Made by a program: the position numbers and the translations under genes | DNA from: Escherichia coli | Lineage (GTDB): Bacteria > Pseudomonadota > Gammaproteobacteria > Enterobacterales > Enterobacteriaceae | Strand: one strand, 5' to 3' | DNA: 64,000 nt | Assembly: GCF_003334765.1 (NCBI RefSeq) | Contig: NZ_QOWT01000009.1 | Notes under the pieces: model-generated | The model's database searches: none | What the model saw: the letters and a program-made list of their open reading frames with translations, nothing else | Told to the model about the DNA's origin: nothing | Part shown: positions 184-9,141 of the stretch, in pieces | Layout of the letters: each line of letters opens with the position of its first letter | Numbering within the stretch: position 1 is the first letter of the stretch

Positions 184-391
184 AGCTTTCCTCGCAGAGT
201 TGGCCCATTTCCGCAAACGCCAGAAAAATCAGCGCGACGGCCGCAAAAGGGGAGCGGGAATTGCAGGATGCAATCTCTGTAACAAGCGTAGCGGGTTTGC
301 TTACACCCTCCGGTTAAGGAATGTACAATCAAACCAGTTGACGCCTGAATTGGGCAGTTAATGACCTTTTTACCCTACCAGTGTTTAAATT

Positions 392-407
392 TGTGATCAA
401 CTTCACA
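392..407. promoter_or_regulatory. CRP-binding palindrome in proP upstream region
   Basis: Perfect TGTGA-N6-TCACA (tgtgatcaacttcaca) about 210 bp upstream of proP ATG; consistent with the known CRP-controlled proP P1 promoter. Confidence 0.55.
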
Positions 408-446
408 CATGGATTTCGTTTAGGACTCATTGATGTAACTGATTAT

Positions 447-1325
447 TTACGCCAAATTTACAGAGAAGATTTCCTCGAGCATTGCCCCCGCCAGACGCTG
501 CGCTGAACAGAGTCGTGGCATCCCCAGCGCGACAGTTTGCCAGCGTTGGGTCACTGACCAGCAAACGGGTTGTTTATCTGCCGTGGTCCACTTTCCCAGC
601 CAACTTAAAAAATCAGCATGCTCCCCGCCCGTCGGAACGGTCGAAGAGGCAAACCACTGATGGTAATAGTGACGCGTGGTCGGTGCCGCATTGATACTCT
701 CTGCCAGATGTTGTGTCGCTTTCTCGAGCAAATCACCCAGCAACAACGCCACCGCTTGCGGGCTTCCCAGACGGCAGGCATCGCCAAATGCCCCCCAGCG
801 CAACTCCTCCAGAACGATAAAACAGCGCCCAGGCAACGACCAGGCGTTATACGCCCCAGCACGCCAGCGGGTAAAAATTTGCTCGCTCTGATCACCTGCC
901 TGCACCAGTAGGCCTCGTTGCGTTAACGCCTTTTCCTTCCAGCGACAACGGGCTGAAAACCACTCATACAAGGCGGCAATTTGCTGGGGGAGCTCCGGGA
1001 AAGCAGAGTGCTGGCGGTGATCCATTTTTTGCAGCAGCGCCAGATGCTGCGCGATCTGCGTCAGTGCCAGATGACCGGGATCCAGCATCGACGCCAGTTT
1101 TTCCACCAATGTCAGACGCAGGCTAAGCGGCGCATTTAACATGCCGCCGTTCGTCCATGTCTGAAGCTGCACACGCGAAAGAAGTTCCTGCATCAGTCGT
1201 TCACGAAACTGCTGCTGATGGGCTTGTGGAAGGCGGGCATCATCACCCTGCGCCAGATCCACTAAAAAGCGGGGATAAACCGACTCCAGCACGCGACCGG
1301 GGCCGTCAAGTAACGTCTTGGTCAA
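447..1325 (-). CDS. yjcZ: Uncharacterised protein YjcZ (292 aa), co-operonic with crfC
   Basis: ORF track 447..1325; start ATG overlaps crfC stop by 4 bp (ATGA on minus strand). Confidence 0.88.
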   Translation of the reverse strand: MTKTLLDGPGRVLESVYPRFLVDLAQGDDARLPQAHQQQFRERLMQELLSRVQLQTWTNGGMLNAPLSLRLTLVEKLASMLDPGHLALTQIAQHLALLQKMDHRQHSAFPELPQQIAALYEWFSARCRWKEKALTQRGLLVQAGDQSEQIFTRWRAGAYNAWSLPGRCFIVLEELRWGAFGDACRLGSPQAVALLLGDLLEKATQHLAESINAAPTTRHYYHQWFASSTVPTGGEHADFLSWLGKWTTADKQPVCWSVTQRWQTVALGMPRLCSAQRLAGAMLEEIFSVNLA

Positions 1326-3550
1326 TATCGTTCTGCCGTGAAAAGTGTTTGAATATCATCGCGTAACAGCTGGGCGTCGGTGTAAATCCAGCCGTGAGTC
1401 ATCACAGTCTGCTGCAATTGCTGCTGCATCAGCCTGACCACCGATTCATTTTGTTGACGCAGAGCCAGACTTTCGCGTAAACGCGTCTGTAATTCCGTCA
1501 AACATGAAGCGAACTCAGCGAAAAAAGTATTCATGCCTGCCGTAACAGATTCATCGACCTGCTCTGCCAGAACTTTAGCCATTTGTTGGCAATAGAGATC
1601 GACTTCTGCGCTTAATGCTCGTTGCAACACACTGTAATCAACCGTTTCTGTCGGTGATTTCTCATTTCCCCGTCCCCAGTCGGGCTGATTCAACCAGCGC
1701 GAAAAAGTCTCACGCACAACGCCTAAACGCGTGCTCTGCTCGTCCGTTGCTTCCTGGCGCGAAATGACTTCACTGAACAGCTGGCGAGTGTTGAAGTGGG
1801 GAACTACGCCGTGAAAAACAGGAAAATGAAACCCAGGACGAAACCCTGACTCGCTCAATTCCATTTTGACTTGTTGCTCAATGGGGCGAATAACATCGGT
1901 TAACACCCGGCAAAGGGTGGATTCAAGCTCGGCAAAACGCAGCGTAAAGTCGCGACTGATGGTGTTCTGCGCCGTCTGTAACAGTGTCTCACAGCGGGTA
2001 CGAATCTCGCTTAACGGCTCCGAATCATCCTGAAACAAGGCGGCTAACTGCACCTTCAGCGCATCTTGCTGTTGACGCAGAAAGTGGTTGGCGGAGGTCA
2101 GGGCCAGCTCGATTTCATGTTTAATCTCGCCGCTCACCTGCGCCTGATTGAGTTGCAATAGCTGCAAACTTTCTTCGATCTGGTGGATATTTTGCCGCAA
2201 TTGTTCACAAGCGACGTTTAACCCGTGCGCACGAAAATCCAGGTATTCCCGCGCCTGCTGCGCGTAATTCAACAGTTTATGCGCGGCAGATCGCAGAGCA
2301 TACAACGAGGCGTTAGCGTAAGCGGCATGAAGCAACGCCTGAATTGGCTGGGCGAACAGCGAATCTTCCCACAACTGATCGGCAGCATGACGAATATGTT
2401 CGAGGTCCGCCAGATCGGCATGACGCCAGCGCCTGCCAAGCGCGGCATGGGCAAAATCTTCCACCCAGCGTTGTTGCTCTGGCGGTGGTAACTTACCGTT
2501 GTTGGCTAACTCATAGCGCGCCCGATTCGCCAGGTAGCCCCACATCGACGACACCGGAAATATCTGCTGTGGCGTAATACAGCCTTTCATCAGCGTCCCG
2601 GAAATCAGTGCCCGCACCTGGTCGGCGTCGTCACTGTTACGATCCTGTTGATCGAACTTATTGACCAGCACGTACAGCGGCACCGATTGCCCCACCGCCA
2701 AAATCGCCTCACGGACCTCTTCATCGGAGATCGATTTCAGTTGCGTATAATCCAGCACCGCCAGTACCGCCGAGGCGCGTGCCAGCTGCTGGTTAAGCAT
2801 TTTTTGCAGATGCGGTTGCCCGGCTTCATTTGGCCCGGGGGTATCCAGTAACGTCAACTGACCGGGATAACTCTCCAGCCCCGCTAGATGGACAAACTCC
2901 ACTTCAATCACGGGAATATGCTCAATGGCGGCGTAAGCAGAAAAAGGAAAATCGACGTCCAGCGCCTTCGCCAGTCGCACTAAATCATTCAAACTTTTCA
3001 GACAATGAAAAATAGGCTGGGCACCCAGATAATATTTTTCGAAAGCGACGCCATTTTCGATCCGCTGCATAAGCGCACGCATATCTTTATCTATTTCCAG
3101 CACATCGGTCAGATGCTTAATATCGCAATCACGCAGGCGCTGTTGTAATTGTTGAATTAAACAATCGATTGGCGCGACATGTGAAAAATGCAGTACCGGT
3201 TCCTTTTGCCCGGGCGTATGGCGAATAAGCGTCGGCAGCGCAGTCATTGGGCGATTACGATTAGGCAGAACCTCCGTACCAACAATGGCATTAATGGTGG
3301 TTGATTTCCCTGCTTTCATGGTACCGACAATTGCAAGCACCATTTCCAGTCGGGAAATTTTACGCAACTCATTATTCAGCATCGCGTGACGTTCGGCGAT
3401 ATTAGGCTGACTCCAGGGTAAAGCCAGTTGTGGCGCGTCGTCTCCGGGTACAGAGAGAGGCATTTTTTCCAGTAACTGCAACTGTTGGCGAGAAAGCTGT
3501 AACAGGCGTTCAGCCTCCTGACTTAACTCATACAGGGTCTGTGTGTACAT
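1322..3550 (-). CDS. crfC: Dynamin-like GTPase CrfC/YjdA (742 aa)
   Basis: ORF track; GTPase P-loop GTMKAGKST and long coiled-coil-like C-terminal region visible in translation. Confidence 0.9.
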   Translation of the reverse strand: MYTQTLYELSQEAERLLQLSRQQLQLLEKMPLSVPGDDAPQLALPWSQPNIAERHAMLNNELRKISRLEMVLAIVGTMKAGKSTTINAIVGTEVLPNRNRPMTALPTLIRHTPGQKEPVLHFSHVAPIDCLIQQLQQRLRDCDIKHLTDVLEIDKDMRALMQRIENGVAFEKYYLGAQPIFHCLKSLNDLVRLAKALDVDFPFSAYAAIEHIPVIEVEFVHLAGLESYPGQLTLLDTPGPNEAGQPHLQKMLNQQLARASAVLAVLDYTQLKSISDEEVREAILAVGQSVPLYVLVNKFDQQDRNSDDADQVRALISGTLMKGCITPQQIFPVSSMWGYLANRARYELANNGKLPPPEQQRWVEDFAHAALGRRWRHADLADLEHIRHAADQLWEDSLFAQPIQALLHAAYANASLYALRSAAHKLLNYAQQAREYLDFRAHGLNVACEQLRQNIHQIEESLQLLQLNQAQVSGEIKHEIELALTSANHFLRQQQDALKVQLAALFQDDSEPLSEIRTRCETLLQTAQNTISRDFTLRFAELESTLCRVLTDVIRPIEQQVKMELSESGFRPGFHFPVFHGVVPHFNTRQLFSEVISRQEATDEQSTRLGVVRETFSRWLNQPDWGRGNEKSPTETVDYSVLQRALSAEVDLYCQQMAKVLAEQVDESVTAGMNTFFAEFASCLTELQTRLRESLALRQQNESVVRLMQQQLQQTVMTHGWIYTDAQLLRDDIQTLFTAERY

Positions 3551-3950
3551 AGAAAATTCTTCCTTAAAGCAAATTTTGTTATTTTATTTAGCCAGATTGT
3601 TTTTGAGTTCTGTTTTCGGCTTTTATAATTACTGCAAGAAATAATTTTATATTTAGTGTGTTGTTTTTTATCAGAATAAATAACGTCTTCTGATACGTTT
3701 AAAACGTCAGAAAGATAAAAATATCATGTGAATTAAAAAAAGAACAAGTAGAGCATTAACATTATCTTAAATAATAAATAGAGGCAAAAAGATTATTTTC
3801 TTTTTGCGTTTCCTTTCAAATGAAAACGATCGTCGTCTAAAATCAGCAGTACCCCCGACAAACTCAGGGATTTTGTGTATAATTGCGGCCTTTTTCGGCA
3901 ATCTGCCGTTTTTTGGCGCTTTTGCCCTGCTGACTTTTGAGGAAATCCAC

Positions 3951-4286: not shown

Positions 4287-4304
4287 TTGTATTGTGATCG
4301 GTAA

Positions 4305-4580
<276 letters not shown>

Positions 4581-4643
4581 GCCTCTCATCTGTATAAATT
4601 TCGAACTACACTTAACTGGCTTCTCTTAACTGAGGTCACCATC

Positions 4644-7942: not shown

Positions 7943-7962
7943 TAAGCGAGGCATTGATATCT

Positions 7963-8688
7963 ATGCACTTGTCTACACATCCGACCAGCTACCCAACACG
8001 CTATCAAGAGATAGCCGCAAAACTTGAGCAGGAGCTTCGTCAACACTACCGCTGCGGCGACTATCTTCCCGCCGAGCAGCAACTGGCAGCGCGCTTTGAG
8101 GTGAATCGCCACACCCTGCGCCGCGCCATCGACCAACTGGTGGAAAAAGGCTGGGTACAGCGCCGTCAGGGCGTCGGCGTGCTGGTGCTGATGCGCCCGT
8201 TCGATTACCCGCTCAACGCCCAGGCGCGTTTTAGCCAGAATCTGCTGGATCAGGGCAGCCATCCCACCAGCGAAAAACTGCTTTCGGTATTGCGCCCCGC
8301 GTCCGGCCACGTCGCTGACGCACTGGGGATTACCGAGGGGGAGAACGTCATCCACCTGCGCACCCTGCGTCGTGTCAACGGCGTCGCGCTCTGTTTAATC
8401 GACCACTACTTCGCGGACCTCACCCTCTGGCCGACGCTGCAACGCTTCGACAGCGGCTCGCTGCACGATTTTCTGCGCGAGCAAACCGGAATTGCGCTGC
8501 GCCGCAGCCAGACGCGGATCAGCGCCCGCCGCGCCCAGGCCAAAGAGTGCCAGCGTCTTGAAATCCCGAATATGTCGCCGCTGCTGTGCGTGCGCACCCT
8601 TAACCACCGTGACGGTGAAAGCAGCCCGGCGGAGTACTCCGTCAGCCTGACGCGCGCCGACATGATTGAATTCACTATGGAGCACTGA
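7963..8688 (+). CDS. phnF: GntR-family transcriptional regulator PhnF (241 aa)
   Basis: ATG at 7963 within ORF 7954..8688 (track starts at an upstream TTG); N-terminal HTH region. Confidence 0.93.
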   Translation: MHLSTHPTSYPTRYQEIAAKLEQELRQHYRCGDYLPAEQQLAARFEVNRHTLRRAIDQLVEKGWVQRRQGVGVLVLMRPFDYPLNAQARFSQNLLDQGSHPTSEKLLSVLRPASGHVADALGITEGENVIHLRTLRRVNGVALCLIDHYFADLTLWPTLQRFDSGSLHDFLREQTGIALRRSQTRISARRAQAKECQRLEIPNMSPLLCVRTLNHRDGESSPAEYSVSLTRADMIEFTMEH

Positions 8689-9141
8689 ATGCACGCAGAT
8701 ACCGCGACCCGCCAGCACTGGATGTCCGTGCTGGCGCACAGCCAACCGGCTGAACTGGCAGCACGCCTGAACGCGCTAAACATCACCGCCGACTATGAGG
8801 TGATCCGCGCCGCTGAAACTGGCCTGGTACAGATTCAGGCGCGGATGGGCGGCACCGGCGAACGTTTTTTTGCCGGCGACGCCACGCTGACCCGCGCCGC
8901 CGTGCGCCTGACTGACGGCACGCTCGGCTACAGCTGGGTGCAGGGGCGTGATAAACAGCACGCCGAACGCTGCGCGCTGATTGACGCGCTGATGCAGCAA
9001 TCTCGCCACTTTCAAAACTTATCAGAAACCCTTATTGCCCCGCTGGACGCTGACCGTATGACACGCATTGCCGCACGCCAGGCCGAAGTGAACGCCAGCC
9101 GGGTCGACTTCTTTACGATGGTTCGCGGAGACAACGCATGA
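8689..9141 (+). CDS. phnG: C-P lyase complex subunit PhnG
   Basis: ORF track; start directly abuts phnF stop. Confidence 0.95.

Follow-up and report, generated by a model that had tools for sequence, protein, structure and literature searches.

The overlapping crfC-yjcZ pair of Escherichia coli is the known rdcA-rdcB unit, very probably with two routes of yjcZ expression and a mobile, patatin-linked sister cassette

What does the short overlap between crfC, the gene of a dynamin-like GTPase, and its downstream neighbour yjcZ imply for how the two proteins are made and what they do together? The pair lies near one end of a 64,000-nt stretch of an E. coli K-12 contig (NZ_QOWT01000009.1), the whole of which is referred to here as the window. 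A sequence-only reading of the window had described the two genes as overlapping by 4 bp, and both the ORF list and the RefSeq annotation agree with the following coordinates.

3550..1322, minus strand: crfC (yjdA, rdcA) coding sequence, a 742-aa soluble dynamin-like GTPase; ORF list, same coordinates in RefSeq
1325..447, minus strand: yjcZ (rdcB) coding sequence, 292 aa, TTG start, an all-alpha partner; ORF list, same coordinates for rdcB in RefSeq
1325..1322, minus strand: 4-nt stop/start overlap TTGA, made up of the crfC TGA stop and the yjcZ TTG start; read from the sequence

The overlap had been given as ATGA. On the minus strand it actually reads TTGA, which makes TTG rather than ATG the start codon of yjcZ. 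The 3' end of yjcZ (447) is followed by 263 bp and then the start of proP (183). In this region a weak hairpin with a T-run is found at 245..233, and no convincing intrinsic terminator was detected after yjcZ (RNA fold z=0.09). The pair was found in 5418 of 5426 complete E. coli genomes.

The crfC-yjcZ pair is the known, published RdcA-RdcB unit, and as first described it adds little. The RdcA/RdcB locus of Pfiffer et al. (2019; PMC6510439) is the same locus, as the DNA is 100% identical to that of E. coli K-12 MG1655 and the gene coordinates are the same. In that study RdcA bound RdcB in a bacterial two-hybrid assay, and these two-hybrid data are the basis for the interaction. The description of yjcZ as a gene of unknown function is outdated, since activation of the diguanylate cyclase DgcE needs both RdcA and RdcB (PMC6510439). 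The genetics of Pfiffer et al. show that the RdcA-RdcB complex docks on the MASE1 domain of DgcE, dependent on the capacity of RdcA for GTP hydrolysis, and that it promotes c-di-GMP synthesis, which acts on the PdeR-DgcM-MlrA-CsgD biofilm switch and slows motility. PMC6510439 is silent on the TTG start, the overlap and the patatin-linked relatives described below. In our reading, the locus is very probably this known unit with two routes of yjcZ expression, an RdcA-RdcB complex that acts on DgcE, and the position of a patatin-less sister to a mobile cassette.

The identification of CrfC as a dynamin-like GTPase with the P-loop GTMKAGKST was confirmed by matches to Pfam Dynamin_N (E=7e-18) and to the NCBIfam CrfC equivalog NF007368 (1597 bits). 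The P-loop region also matched the Nostoc BDLP 2j68 (E=1.7e-6), and the three G-domain motifs of dynamin-like proteins (DLPs) were all present (G1 GxxxxGK[ST], G3 DxxG and G4 [NT]KxD).

3325..3299, minus strand: G1 motif (P-loop) GTMKAGKST, residues 76-84; found in the sequence by regular expression
2845..2834, minus strand: G3 motif DTPG, residues 236-239; conserved in the cassette paralogue
2662..2651, minus strand: G4 motif NKFD, residues 297-300; conserved in the cassette paralogue
3430..3416, minus strand: beta-clamp-binding motif 41-QLALP; motif as defined in PMC6374313

A Pfam search of the C-terminal half of CrfC returned no domain. Ozaki 2013 reportedly presented CrfC as a clamp-binding nucleoid partition factor. 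Binding of the beta clamp and a role as clamp-binding nucleoid partition factor are published for the same protein (PMC6374313, Taniguchi 2019), in which 41-QLALP is present and mediates this additional contact; GTP hydrolysis and self-assembly of CrfC are also published (PMC6510439; PMC6374313). Among 81 aligned sequences QLALP was limited to the CrfC of this window, with PLTLP(W) at this position in other Escherichia species and mostly V(L/Q)PLHF in other genera. Judged from this alignment, the clamp-binding motif appears to be specific to E. coli. Because the motif Q is missing from the other Escherichia species and genera sampled, the clamp role of CrfC looks recently added, which fits the 'moonlighting' view in PMC6510439. 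Searches with profiles of the Eleos anti-phage system gave only weak, partial matches of CrfC to LeoBC (E=6e-6) and LeoA (E=3e-5), too weak to assign CrfC to that system, and no LeoA or LeoBC match for YjcZ.

YjcZ matched Pfam PF13990 over its full length (residues 21-287, E=1.3e-143). Its N-terminus, M-x-x-x-L-L-[DE]-G-P-G-R, is kept from codon 1, so the assignment of the yjcZ start is sound. The AF2 model (pLDDT 92, pTM 0.91) is all-alpha, and comparison of this predicted fold revealed no relatives outside its own family and no match to a DLP fold. YjcZ also has no P-loop, no G domain and no Dynamin_N match, and PADLOC and NCBIfam profile searches assigned it to no family. The PF13990 gene lies directly downstream of a dynamin-family gene in 80/80 enterobacterial loci, and a YjcZ-family gene does so in 79/80 metagenome loci; the remaining one lies at a contig end. 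Rather than a dynamin, YjcZ is a dedicated non-GTPase partner of CrfC. The partnership that had been proposed for the two proteins is thus borne out by the gene pairing together with the published two-hybrid interaction.

How YjcZ synthesis depends on that of CrfC was addressed from the anatomy of the junction. The minus strand reads ...CGA TAT TGA, with TTG ACC AAG in the +2 register. Across 80 species-level enterobacterial loci the junction was ATGA in 72, TTGA in 3 (all Escherichia), TGATG in 1 and TAAnnATG in 4, and it was tight (genes overlapping, or separated by no more than 2 nt) in all 80. Bacterial genes that overlap do so most often by 4 nt, and given a TGA stop the chance of a start-type codon one base earlier is 75%. 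Taken alone, the NTGA overlap is weak evidence; it is real but ordinary.

These figures would suit an explanation in which the overlap is incidental compaction and yjcZ is initiated de novo, mostly on a FliA transcript and with no coupling, and so would the almost wholly FliA-dependent yjcZ RNA in published RNA-seq (PMC4183435) and the lack of any special RNA structure hiding the start. However, an ATG sits exactly one base before the TGA in 72 of the 80 species compared to 25% expected by chance, and the NTGA overlap at the DLP/YjcZ junction is kept in both deeply diverged clades of the family, the enterobacterial core and the cassette clade introduced below. A Shine-Dalgarno (SD)-like element precedes yjcZ in only 4/81 core loci (none in 77/81), whereas the cassette clade has a good SD at this junction in 64/79, and a TTG without an SD is very poorly suited to independent initiation. 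We therefore regard incidental overlap as unlikely.

The features of the junction instead favour coupling. In the window the yjcZ start has no SD (anti-SD dG -2.8 versus a background of -2.0 kcal/mol), and the core loci as a whole are similar (-2.5 versus -2.0 kcal/mol). The gene thus combines a stop/start overlap with a start that has no ribosome-binding site of its own, and as a sequence feature the SD-less start fits termination-reinitiation coupling. On the full-length mRNA, ribosomes ending crfC at the TGA would re-initiate one base upstream at the SD-less TTG of yjcZ, and this would tie YjcZ synthesis to CrfC synthesis. Occlusion of the start codon by RNA structure was also considered as a coupling mechanism and set aside, as the junction fold was no stabler than shuffled sequence (z=0.19). 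Of the earlier proposal of translational coupling, the part that rests on junction anatomy (conserved overlap, missing SD) stands, and the part that extends it to strict stoichiometry does not.

The reason lies within crfC itself, and the region upstream of crfC was scanned as well.

1577..1550, minus strand: sigma-28 (FliA) promoter in crfC codons 658-667, TAAAGTTC-N11-GTCGATGA-A, ~225 nt upstream of the yjcZ start
3551..3950, no strand assigned: crfC-yjdM divergent intergenic region, AT-rich, presumed to hold the crfC promoter
3819..3792, minus strand: candidate sigma-70 site, from a consensus scan alone
~3621..3614, minus strand: sigma-28 -10-like element GCCGAAAA with no -35; from the sequence

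The site at 1577..1550 is an exact match to the published FliA ChIP-seq motif (PMC4183435). Compared to a TAAAGTTT-N11-GCCGATAA-like motif, TAAAGTTC-N11-GTCGATGA agrees at 13/16 positions and is near-consensus; the exact sigma-28 consensus, TAAA-N14-16-GCCGATAA, has no match in the window. In 61 of the 80 species loci the best FliA-motif match occupies this position, and synonymous change beneath the promoter is constrained (p ~0.003). ChIP-seq and RNA-seq have established that yjcZ is transcribed from a FliA-dependent promoter within crfC, with yjcZ RNA falling from 52 to 1 and yjdA RNA from 111 to 11 (~10-fold) in a fliA mutant (PMC4183435), and a lacZ fusion to the crfC-internal promoter is FliA-dependent (10.1101/188474). 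As this literature shows, the sigma-28 promoter in the 3' end of crfC gives rise to a yjcZ-only transcript, and the CrfC:YjcZ ratio would accordingly not be fixed but could be tuned along with the flagellar regulon. Since a separate FliA promoter drives yjcZ, the stoichiometric co-expression that had been read from the overlap does not follow. The sequence-only reading had itself named the joint finding of separate promoters and no physical interaction as evidence against it; a separate promoter is present, and an interaction is published.

Transcript levels in the fliA mutant (PMC4183435) were 1 for yjcZ while yjdA remained at 11, which suggests that under the conditions used little yjcZ RNA may arise by read-through from the crfC promoter. 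As full-length crfC is not translated on the FliA transcript, YjcZ initiation at the SD-less TTG would there proceed by another route. An in-frame crfC ATG, that of M673 (1534..1532), is found ~8-10 nt past the predicted FliA transcription start; initiation at this codon might yield a CrfC C-terminal peptide of roughly 70 aa and so bring ribosomes to yjcZ. The 10-fold FliA dependence of yjdA RNA is not accounted for by an internal promoter 225 nt from the gene end. A sigma-28 promoter upstream of crfC was rejected as a candidate, since the -10-like GCCGAAAA comes without a -35 and the promoter is termed 'incorrectly predicted' in PMC4183435.

The efficiency of re-initiation at a TTG is expected to fall short of 100%, and this already argues against strict 1:1 co-expression, in which yjcZ would be made solely by ribosomes leaving crfC on a single operon mRNA. 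The conserved overlap and the absent SD are what such a scheme would predict, and rdcA-rdcB was handled as an operon and complemented jointly by Pfiffer et al. (PMC6510439). Nevertheless, the crfC-internal FliA promoter, the 52-fold drop of yjcZ RNA in the fliA mutant, the active lacZ fusion, and the conserved position and synonymous sites of the promoter make strict co-expression improbable. The two-route arrangement has a precedent in the flhC-internal FliA promoter (the motAB-cheAW 'duon', Fitzgerald et al.), which is likewise a sigma-28 promoter in the 3' part of an upstream gene that drives the downstream gene. Unlike in the flhC case, the downstream gene here overlaps the upstream stop and has no SD, so that two expression routes coexist, and conservation of the crfC-internal promoter is confined to Enterobacteriaceae.

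Relatives of the pair point to a wider context. Every YjcZ homologue examined outside the enterobacterial core clade lies directly upstream of a patatin phospholipase gene, and most of them belong to an overlapping dynamin-YjcZ-patatin cassette. This cassette is present in about 45-48% of complete E. coli genomes and is mobile and variably present, being IS-flanked, carried on plasmids or located in CP4-44-like islands. One E. coli copy is located at 4581-8934 of L173. CrfC aligns with the cassette DLP over the full length at 33% identity (E=4e-126), and YjcZ with the cassette YjcZ-like protein at 31% identity (E=4e-38). At the level of protein sequence this demonstrates that the core pair and the cassette share common ancestry. 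When a neighbour-joining tree of the DLPs is rooted with the second L180 DLP, the core and cassette clades are sisters, a topology compatible with either loss or gain of the patatin gene. The core pair would thus be the patatin-less sister of a mobile, overlap-coupled cassette. The two are alike in having full-length homologous DLP and YjcZ proteins, the same gene order and the NTGA overlap. The cassette differs in its third, patatin gene, which is overlap-coupled and has intact GGGxxG, GxSxG and DGG motifs, in its good SD sites and in its mobility, whereas the core pair is fixed and followed by the spacer to proP. No match to the cassette patatin was found in the window by tblastn, and the locus is accordingly not a cassette. 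A scan of viral contigs found no relatives of the cassette clade, and clustering of the flanking genes revealed no neighbour common to more than 11/86 cassette loci. Literature searches on dynamin, patatin and anti-phage or defence systems returned nothing relevant, and no functional paper on the cassette was found; it is annotated solely as 'dynamin family protein / RdcB family protein / patatin-like phospholipase'.

Several cassette loci adjoin JukA/JukB, WYL, HNH, NERD-UvrD or toxin-antitoxin genes, JukA or JukA-JukB directly follows the cassette in nine loci, and one locus (L083) encodes a fusion of the anti-phage sensor JukA with a YjcZ domain, upstream of a patatin gene. This fusion links the family to the Juk anti-jumbo-phage system (JukA sensor and JukB effector; 10.1101/2022.09.17.508391), which differs from the present locus in that the window has neither JukA nor JukB and YjcZ has no match to the PADLOC JukB models. 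Kinship with the cassette suggests that YjcZ may be an adaptor that hands the state of the GTPase to an effector. More broadly, and tentatively, the core pair might be an effector-less, domesticated relative of an anti-phage or membrane-attack-like cassette, with YjcZ as the adaptor between a sensor or motor (DLP or JukA) and an effector (patatin or DgcE).

A further step would be that the core pair is still a membrane-stress or anti-phage sensor, with c-di-GMP made through DgcE serving as its output and not as a housekeeping signal of growth phase. The sister cassette's patatin, predicted to be catalytically intact from its motifs, the defence genes beside several cassettes and the YjcZ-JukA fusion lend this some appeal. 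We nevertheless consider it doubtful at best, because the core pair is a fixed chromosomal feature and not a variable island gene, PADLOC gave no match for it, the rdcAB phenotypes published so far are explained by GTP-pool sensing (PMC6510439), and no phage phenotype has been reported for it.

A split or paired dynamin system like Cj-DLP1/DLP2, DynA or LeoB/LeoC, with YjcZ as its second half, is very improbable: although most bacterial DLP genes form side-by-side pairs (PMC6104087) and YjcZ is preceded by two DLP genes in one relative (L180/L181), the second gene of a paired system is itself a DLP, YjcZ is none by P-loop, Dynamin_N match or fold, and CrfC is listed as an exception to DLP-DLP pairing (PMC6104087). 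The earlier likening of the locus to paired bacterial DLPs is an analogy alone. C. jejuni DLP1/DLP2, B. subtilis DynA, Streptomyces DynA/B and ETEC LeoABC share with it an adjacent, co-expressed and interacting partner; in contrast, the partner of CrfC is not a DLP and has an unrelated all-alpha fold.

Three points about the rdcA-rdcB unit and its relatives are worth noting. Expression of yjcZ very probably takes two routes, coupling at its SD-less start and the conserved FliA promoter within crfC. The link to the cassette is new here and a moderately interesting lead, as the patatin coupling and the JukA fusions lead to a testable hypothesis, that RdcB is a GTPase-to-effector adaptor. If this adaptor reading is true, the name used in RefSeq, 'diguanylate cyclase regulator RdcB family', over-annotates most members. 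The cassette itself may reasonably be viewed as a candidate new system for defence or membrane remodelling, with cross-talk to RdcA/RdcB a possibility.

The stretch belongs to E. coli K-12, with 100% identity to MG1655 across bases 300-3800; of 5426 complete E. coli genomes, 5418 carry this region. The sequence-only reading had described two genes overlapping by 4 nt, which was essentially right apart from the start codon; both are on the minus strand, in agreement with RefSeq. It also named crfC (yjdA, rdcA) as encoding a dynamin-like GTPase (DLP) with a P-loop, and both Pfam Dynamin_N and the NCBIfam CrfC equivalog match the protein. The sole match of YjcZ (RdcB) was PF13990, and no model for it was present among the PADLOC profiles.

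Features of the crfC-yjcZ region
3550..1322, minus strand: crfC, 742 aa (ORF, with RefSeq crfC at the same coordinates)
CrfC residue 76: G1 motif, GTMKAGKS
CrfC residue 236: G3 motif, DTPG
CrfC residue 297: G4 motif, NKFD
1577..1550, minus strand: internal FliA promoter (yjcZ begins 225 nt further downstream)
1325..447, minus strand: yjcZ, 292 aa (ORF, with RefSeq rdcB at the same coordinates)

The locus is altered in some strains. In TOE17 (hit H1), the match to 300-3800 is broken in two, and the annotation beneath it includes an IS1 transposase, which places an IS1 insertion in or beside crfC-yjcZ. In the E. coli proteins P0020, P0021 and P0022, CrfC residues 1-234, before G3, are joined to YjcZ from about residue 88. 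This in-frame deletion, found in some E. coli lineages (ends equivalent to ~2849 and ~1064 in the window; product 438-442 aa), is presumed to be a loss-of-function allele of both genes. Separately, the yjdM-yjdN gap (4298-4597, plus strand) holds a REP/BIME-like palindromic unit in three tandem 100-nt copies; relative to the first, the other two show 92% and 77% identity.

yjdA and yjcZ first came to light through suppression of the pdeH (yhjH) motility defect. They were renamed rdcA and rdcB by Pfiffer et al. 2019, who showed that loss of either gene mimics a dgcE deletion in its effects on curli, cellulose, CsgD and c-di-GMP (PMC6510439). Two-hybrid assays revealed self-association of RdcA, binding of RdcA to RdcB and binding of RdcA to the MASE1 domain of DgcE; the hydrolysis-defective RdcA T103D did not activate DgcE, and K82A was functional (PMC6510439). 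The earlier statement that the function of yjcZ is unknown now holds only for the biochemical mechanism of RdcB. A further role of CrfC is to promote nucleoid equipartition, and its 41-QLALP motif binds the beta clamp (PMC6374313). Among 81 aligned sequences, QLALP (3416-3430, minus strand) was present in the window alone; its equivalents were PLTLP(W) in two other Escherichia species and mostly V(L/Q)PLHF in other genera, suggesting from the alignment that clamp binding may be a recent, lineage-specific gain. Since both bodies of work are published, the interaction and deletion-phenotype checks that had been proposed are largely done, and the crfC-yjcZ finding itself is already known.

The minus strand at the junction reads CGA TAT TGA / TTG ACC, so that the overlap is TTGA with a TTG start for yjcZ, not ATGA as first read. 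An NTGA overlap is by itself weak evidence for a meaningful junction. We surveyed 80 Enterobacteriaceae, one locus per species, and in all of them the crfC homologue terminates at the yjcZ start. The junction was ATGA in 72 (including two loci whose tblastn match started at residue 5), TTGA in three, all Escherichia, TAAnnATG in four and TGATG in one; the TTG start in Escherichia is a derived state. YjcZ was conserved from codon 1 on. A Shine-Dalgarno-like element lay within 17 nt before the yjcZ start at only 4 of 81 loci, the mean anti-SD duplex energy there was -2.5 kcal/mol versus -2.0 at random crfC-internal positions, and no RNA structure stood out when the junction was folded. Such an anatomy is what termination-reinitiation would predict, and the proposed translational coupling is inferred from it.

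Strict stoichiometry does not follow from the overlap, because yjcZ possesses its own conserved promoter inside crfC. FliA (sigma-28) ChIP-seq identified a site within yjdA with the motif TAAAGTTCTGGCAGAGCAGGTCGATGAA, which matches the window exactly; in a fliA mutant, yjcZ RNA fell from 52 to 1 and yjdA RNA from 111 to 11, and the authors considered an earlier predicted FliA promoter upstream of yjdA to be wrong (Fitzgerald et al. 2014, PMC4183435). FliA-dependent activity of the internal promoter was confirmed with a lacZ fusion (10.1101/188474). In 61 of the 80 species loci the best sigma-28-like match coincided exactly with this site, and 56 of these agreed with the consensus at 12 or more of its 16 positions. 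Synonymous third positions at key promoter bases (K659 AAA, A/V660 GCT/GTT, V665 GTC, D666 GAT) were conserved at 0.86 versus 0.65 at other synonymous sites of the same alignment (p ~0.003, a rough test as the sequences are related). Separate promoters and a lack of physical interaction had been named as what would refute the reading; the promoter exists, but so does the interaction. The interpretation was partly right.

An in-frame crfC ATG, M673 (1534..1532, minus strand; 93% conserved), sits ~16 nt after the -10 of this promoter, just past the predicted transcription start. As pure speculation, translation from it could yield a peptide of ~70 aa from the CrfC C-terminus and so bring ribosomes to the SD-less yjcZ start on the FliA transcript, from which full-length crfC is not translated. 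Upstream of crfC, we found a sigma-28 -10-like GCCGAAAA (3614-3621, minus strand) with no matching -35, and an inverted repeat with a 9-bp stem (3784-3807) overlapping the best sigma-70-like -10. No FliA site was found in this region, although the published yjdA RNA is 10-fold FliA-dependent.

In the best-supported account, crfC-yjcZ encodes the RdcA-RdcB complex. Presumed re-initiation at the SD-less TTGA junction would couple production of YjcZ to that of CrfC, with a separate boost from the experimentally established FliA promoter. The complex activates DgcE at the membrane in a manner that, as shown genetically, depends on the ability of RdcA to hydrolyse GTP.

An exhaustive profile search placed the YjcZ family in 262 clusters at 50% identity. 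The E. coli-like clade made up 19 of 91 aligned full-length sequences, the remaining clades being larger and more diverse. The closer relatives (31-43% identity) form two-gene dynamin-YjcZ loci. In all other clades examined, an overlapping patatin-like phospholipase gene follows YjcZ, and usually an overlapping ~800-aa dynamin gene precedes it. In the main clade, 80 loci taken from metagenomes kept this order wherever the contig permits (DLP in 79, patatin in 78), with an NTGA overlap at 67 of 79 DLP/YjcZ junctions and a 4- or 8-nt overlap at 73 of 78 YjcZ/patatin junctions, many loci being near-identical so that the effective n is smaller. Good SD sequences preceded the starts in 64 of 79, and the patatin retains GGGxxG, GxSxG and DGG motifs. 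Across their full length, CrfC and the cassette DLP share 33% identity (E=4e-126); between YjcZ and its cassette counterpart the figure is 31% (E=4e-38). The two genes have therefore moved as a pair.

Hosts of the cassette include Pseudomonas, Methylomonas, Allochromatium, Gallionella, Plesiomonas, Providencia and Lelliottia, and 45 plasmids from E. coli, Klebsiella, Enterobacter, Citrobacter and Nostoc carry it. Of the 5426 complete E. coli genomes, 2613 have it (2443 at >=80% coverage), with up to five copies. Three inspected loci carry this paralogous cassette, outside the window:

L173, 4581-8934: in a CP4-44-like island beside antirestriction-yeeS-yeeT-cbeA-cbtA genes
L174, 9001-13354: in the same setting
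L172, 1372-5743: IS-flanked

Two further loci (L180, 352-6973; L181, 251-6872) begin with a pair of adjacent dynamin genes (786 and 490 aa), then a GYF_2-like 261-aa gene, YjcZ and patatin, and are the true paired-DLP version of the module. For members of the patatin-linked clade in Pseudomonas, Methylomonas, plasmids and elsewhere, RefSeq uses 'diguanylate cyclase regulator RdcB family protein' or 'chemotaxis protein'; this naming is likely over-annotation, as the clade has no known link to DgcE.

The genes flanking the cassette are variable. JukA, which serves as the sensor in a validated defence against jumbo phages (10.1101/2022.09.17.508391), lies directly downstream on the same strand at loci L101, L102, L132, L135-L138 and L146 (~7950-8800), and does so together with the effector JukB at L130 (7980-9766); the PADLOC matches reach E=2e-61 and, for JukA plus JukB at L130, 2.5e-112. 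Other neighbours, depending on the locus, are WYL regulators, an HNH nuclease, an SNF2 helicase, NERD-UvrD helicases, bpMoxR/VWA and HigB/Phd. At L083 (5001-7630), which has no dynamin gene, the gene for a 532-aa JukA-YjcZ fusion (JukA PADLOC E=8e-74) overlaps the patatin gene that comes next; JukA fusions to unknown domains were noted by the Juk authors (10.1101/2022.09.17.508391). The viral contigs searched held no YjcZ relatives, and our literature search found neither a functional study of the cassette nor a paper on YjcZ, dynamin and patatin in defence. In a neighbour-joining tree of the DLPs, the core and cassette clades are sisters, a topology that fits either loss or gain of the patatin gene; loss is favoured by the cassette being found across a far broader range of taxa. 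We suggest, tentatively and with rather less than even confidence, that YjcZ family proteins may be adaptors that connect a sensor or motor (DLP or JukA) to an effector (patatin, or DgcE in the core pair), and that the core pair may be related to a defence-like cassette but domesticated and lacking the effector.
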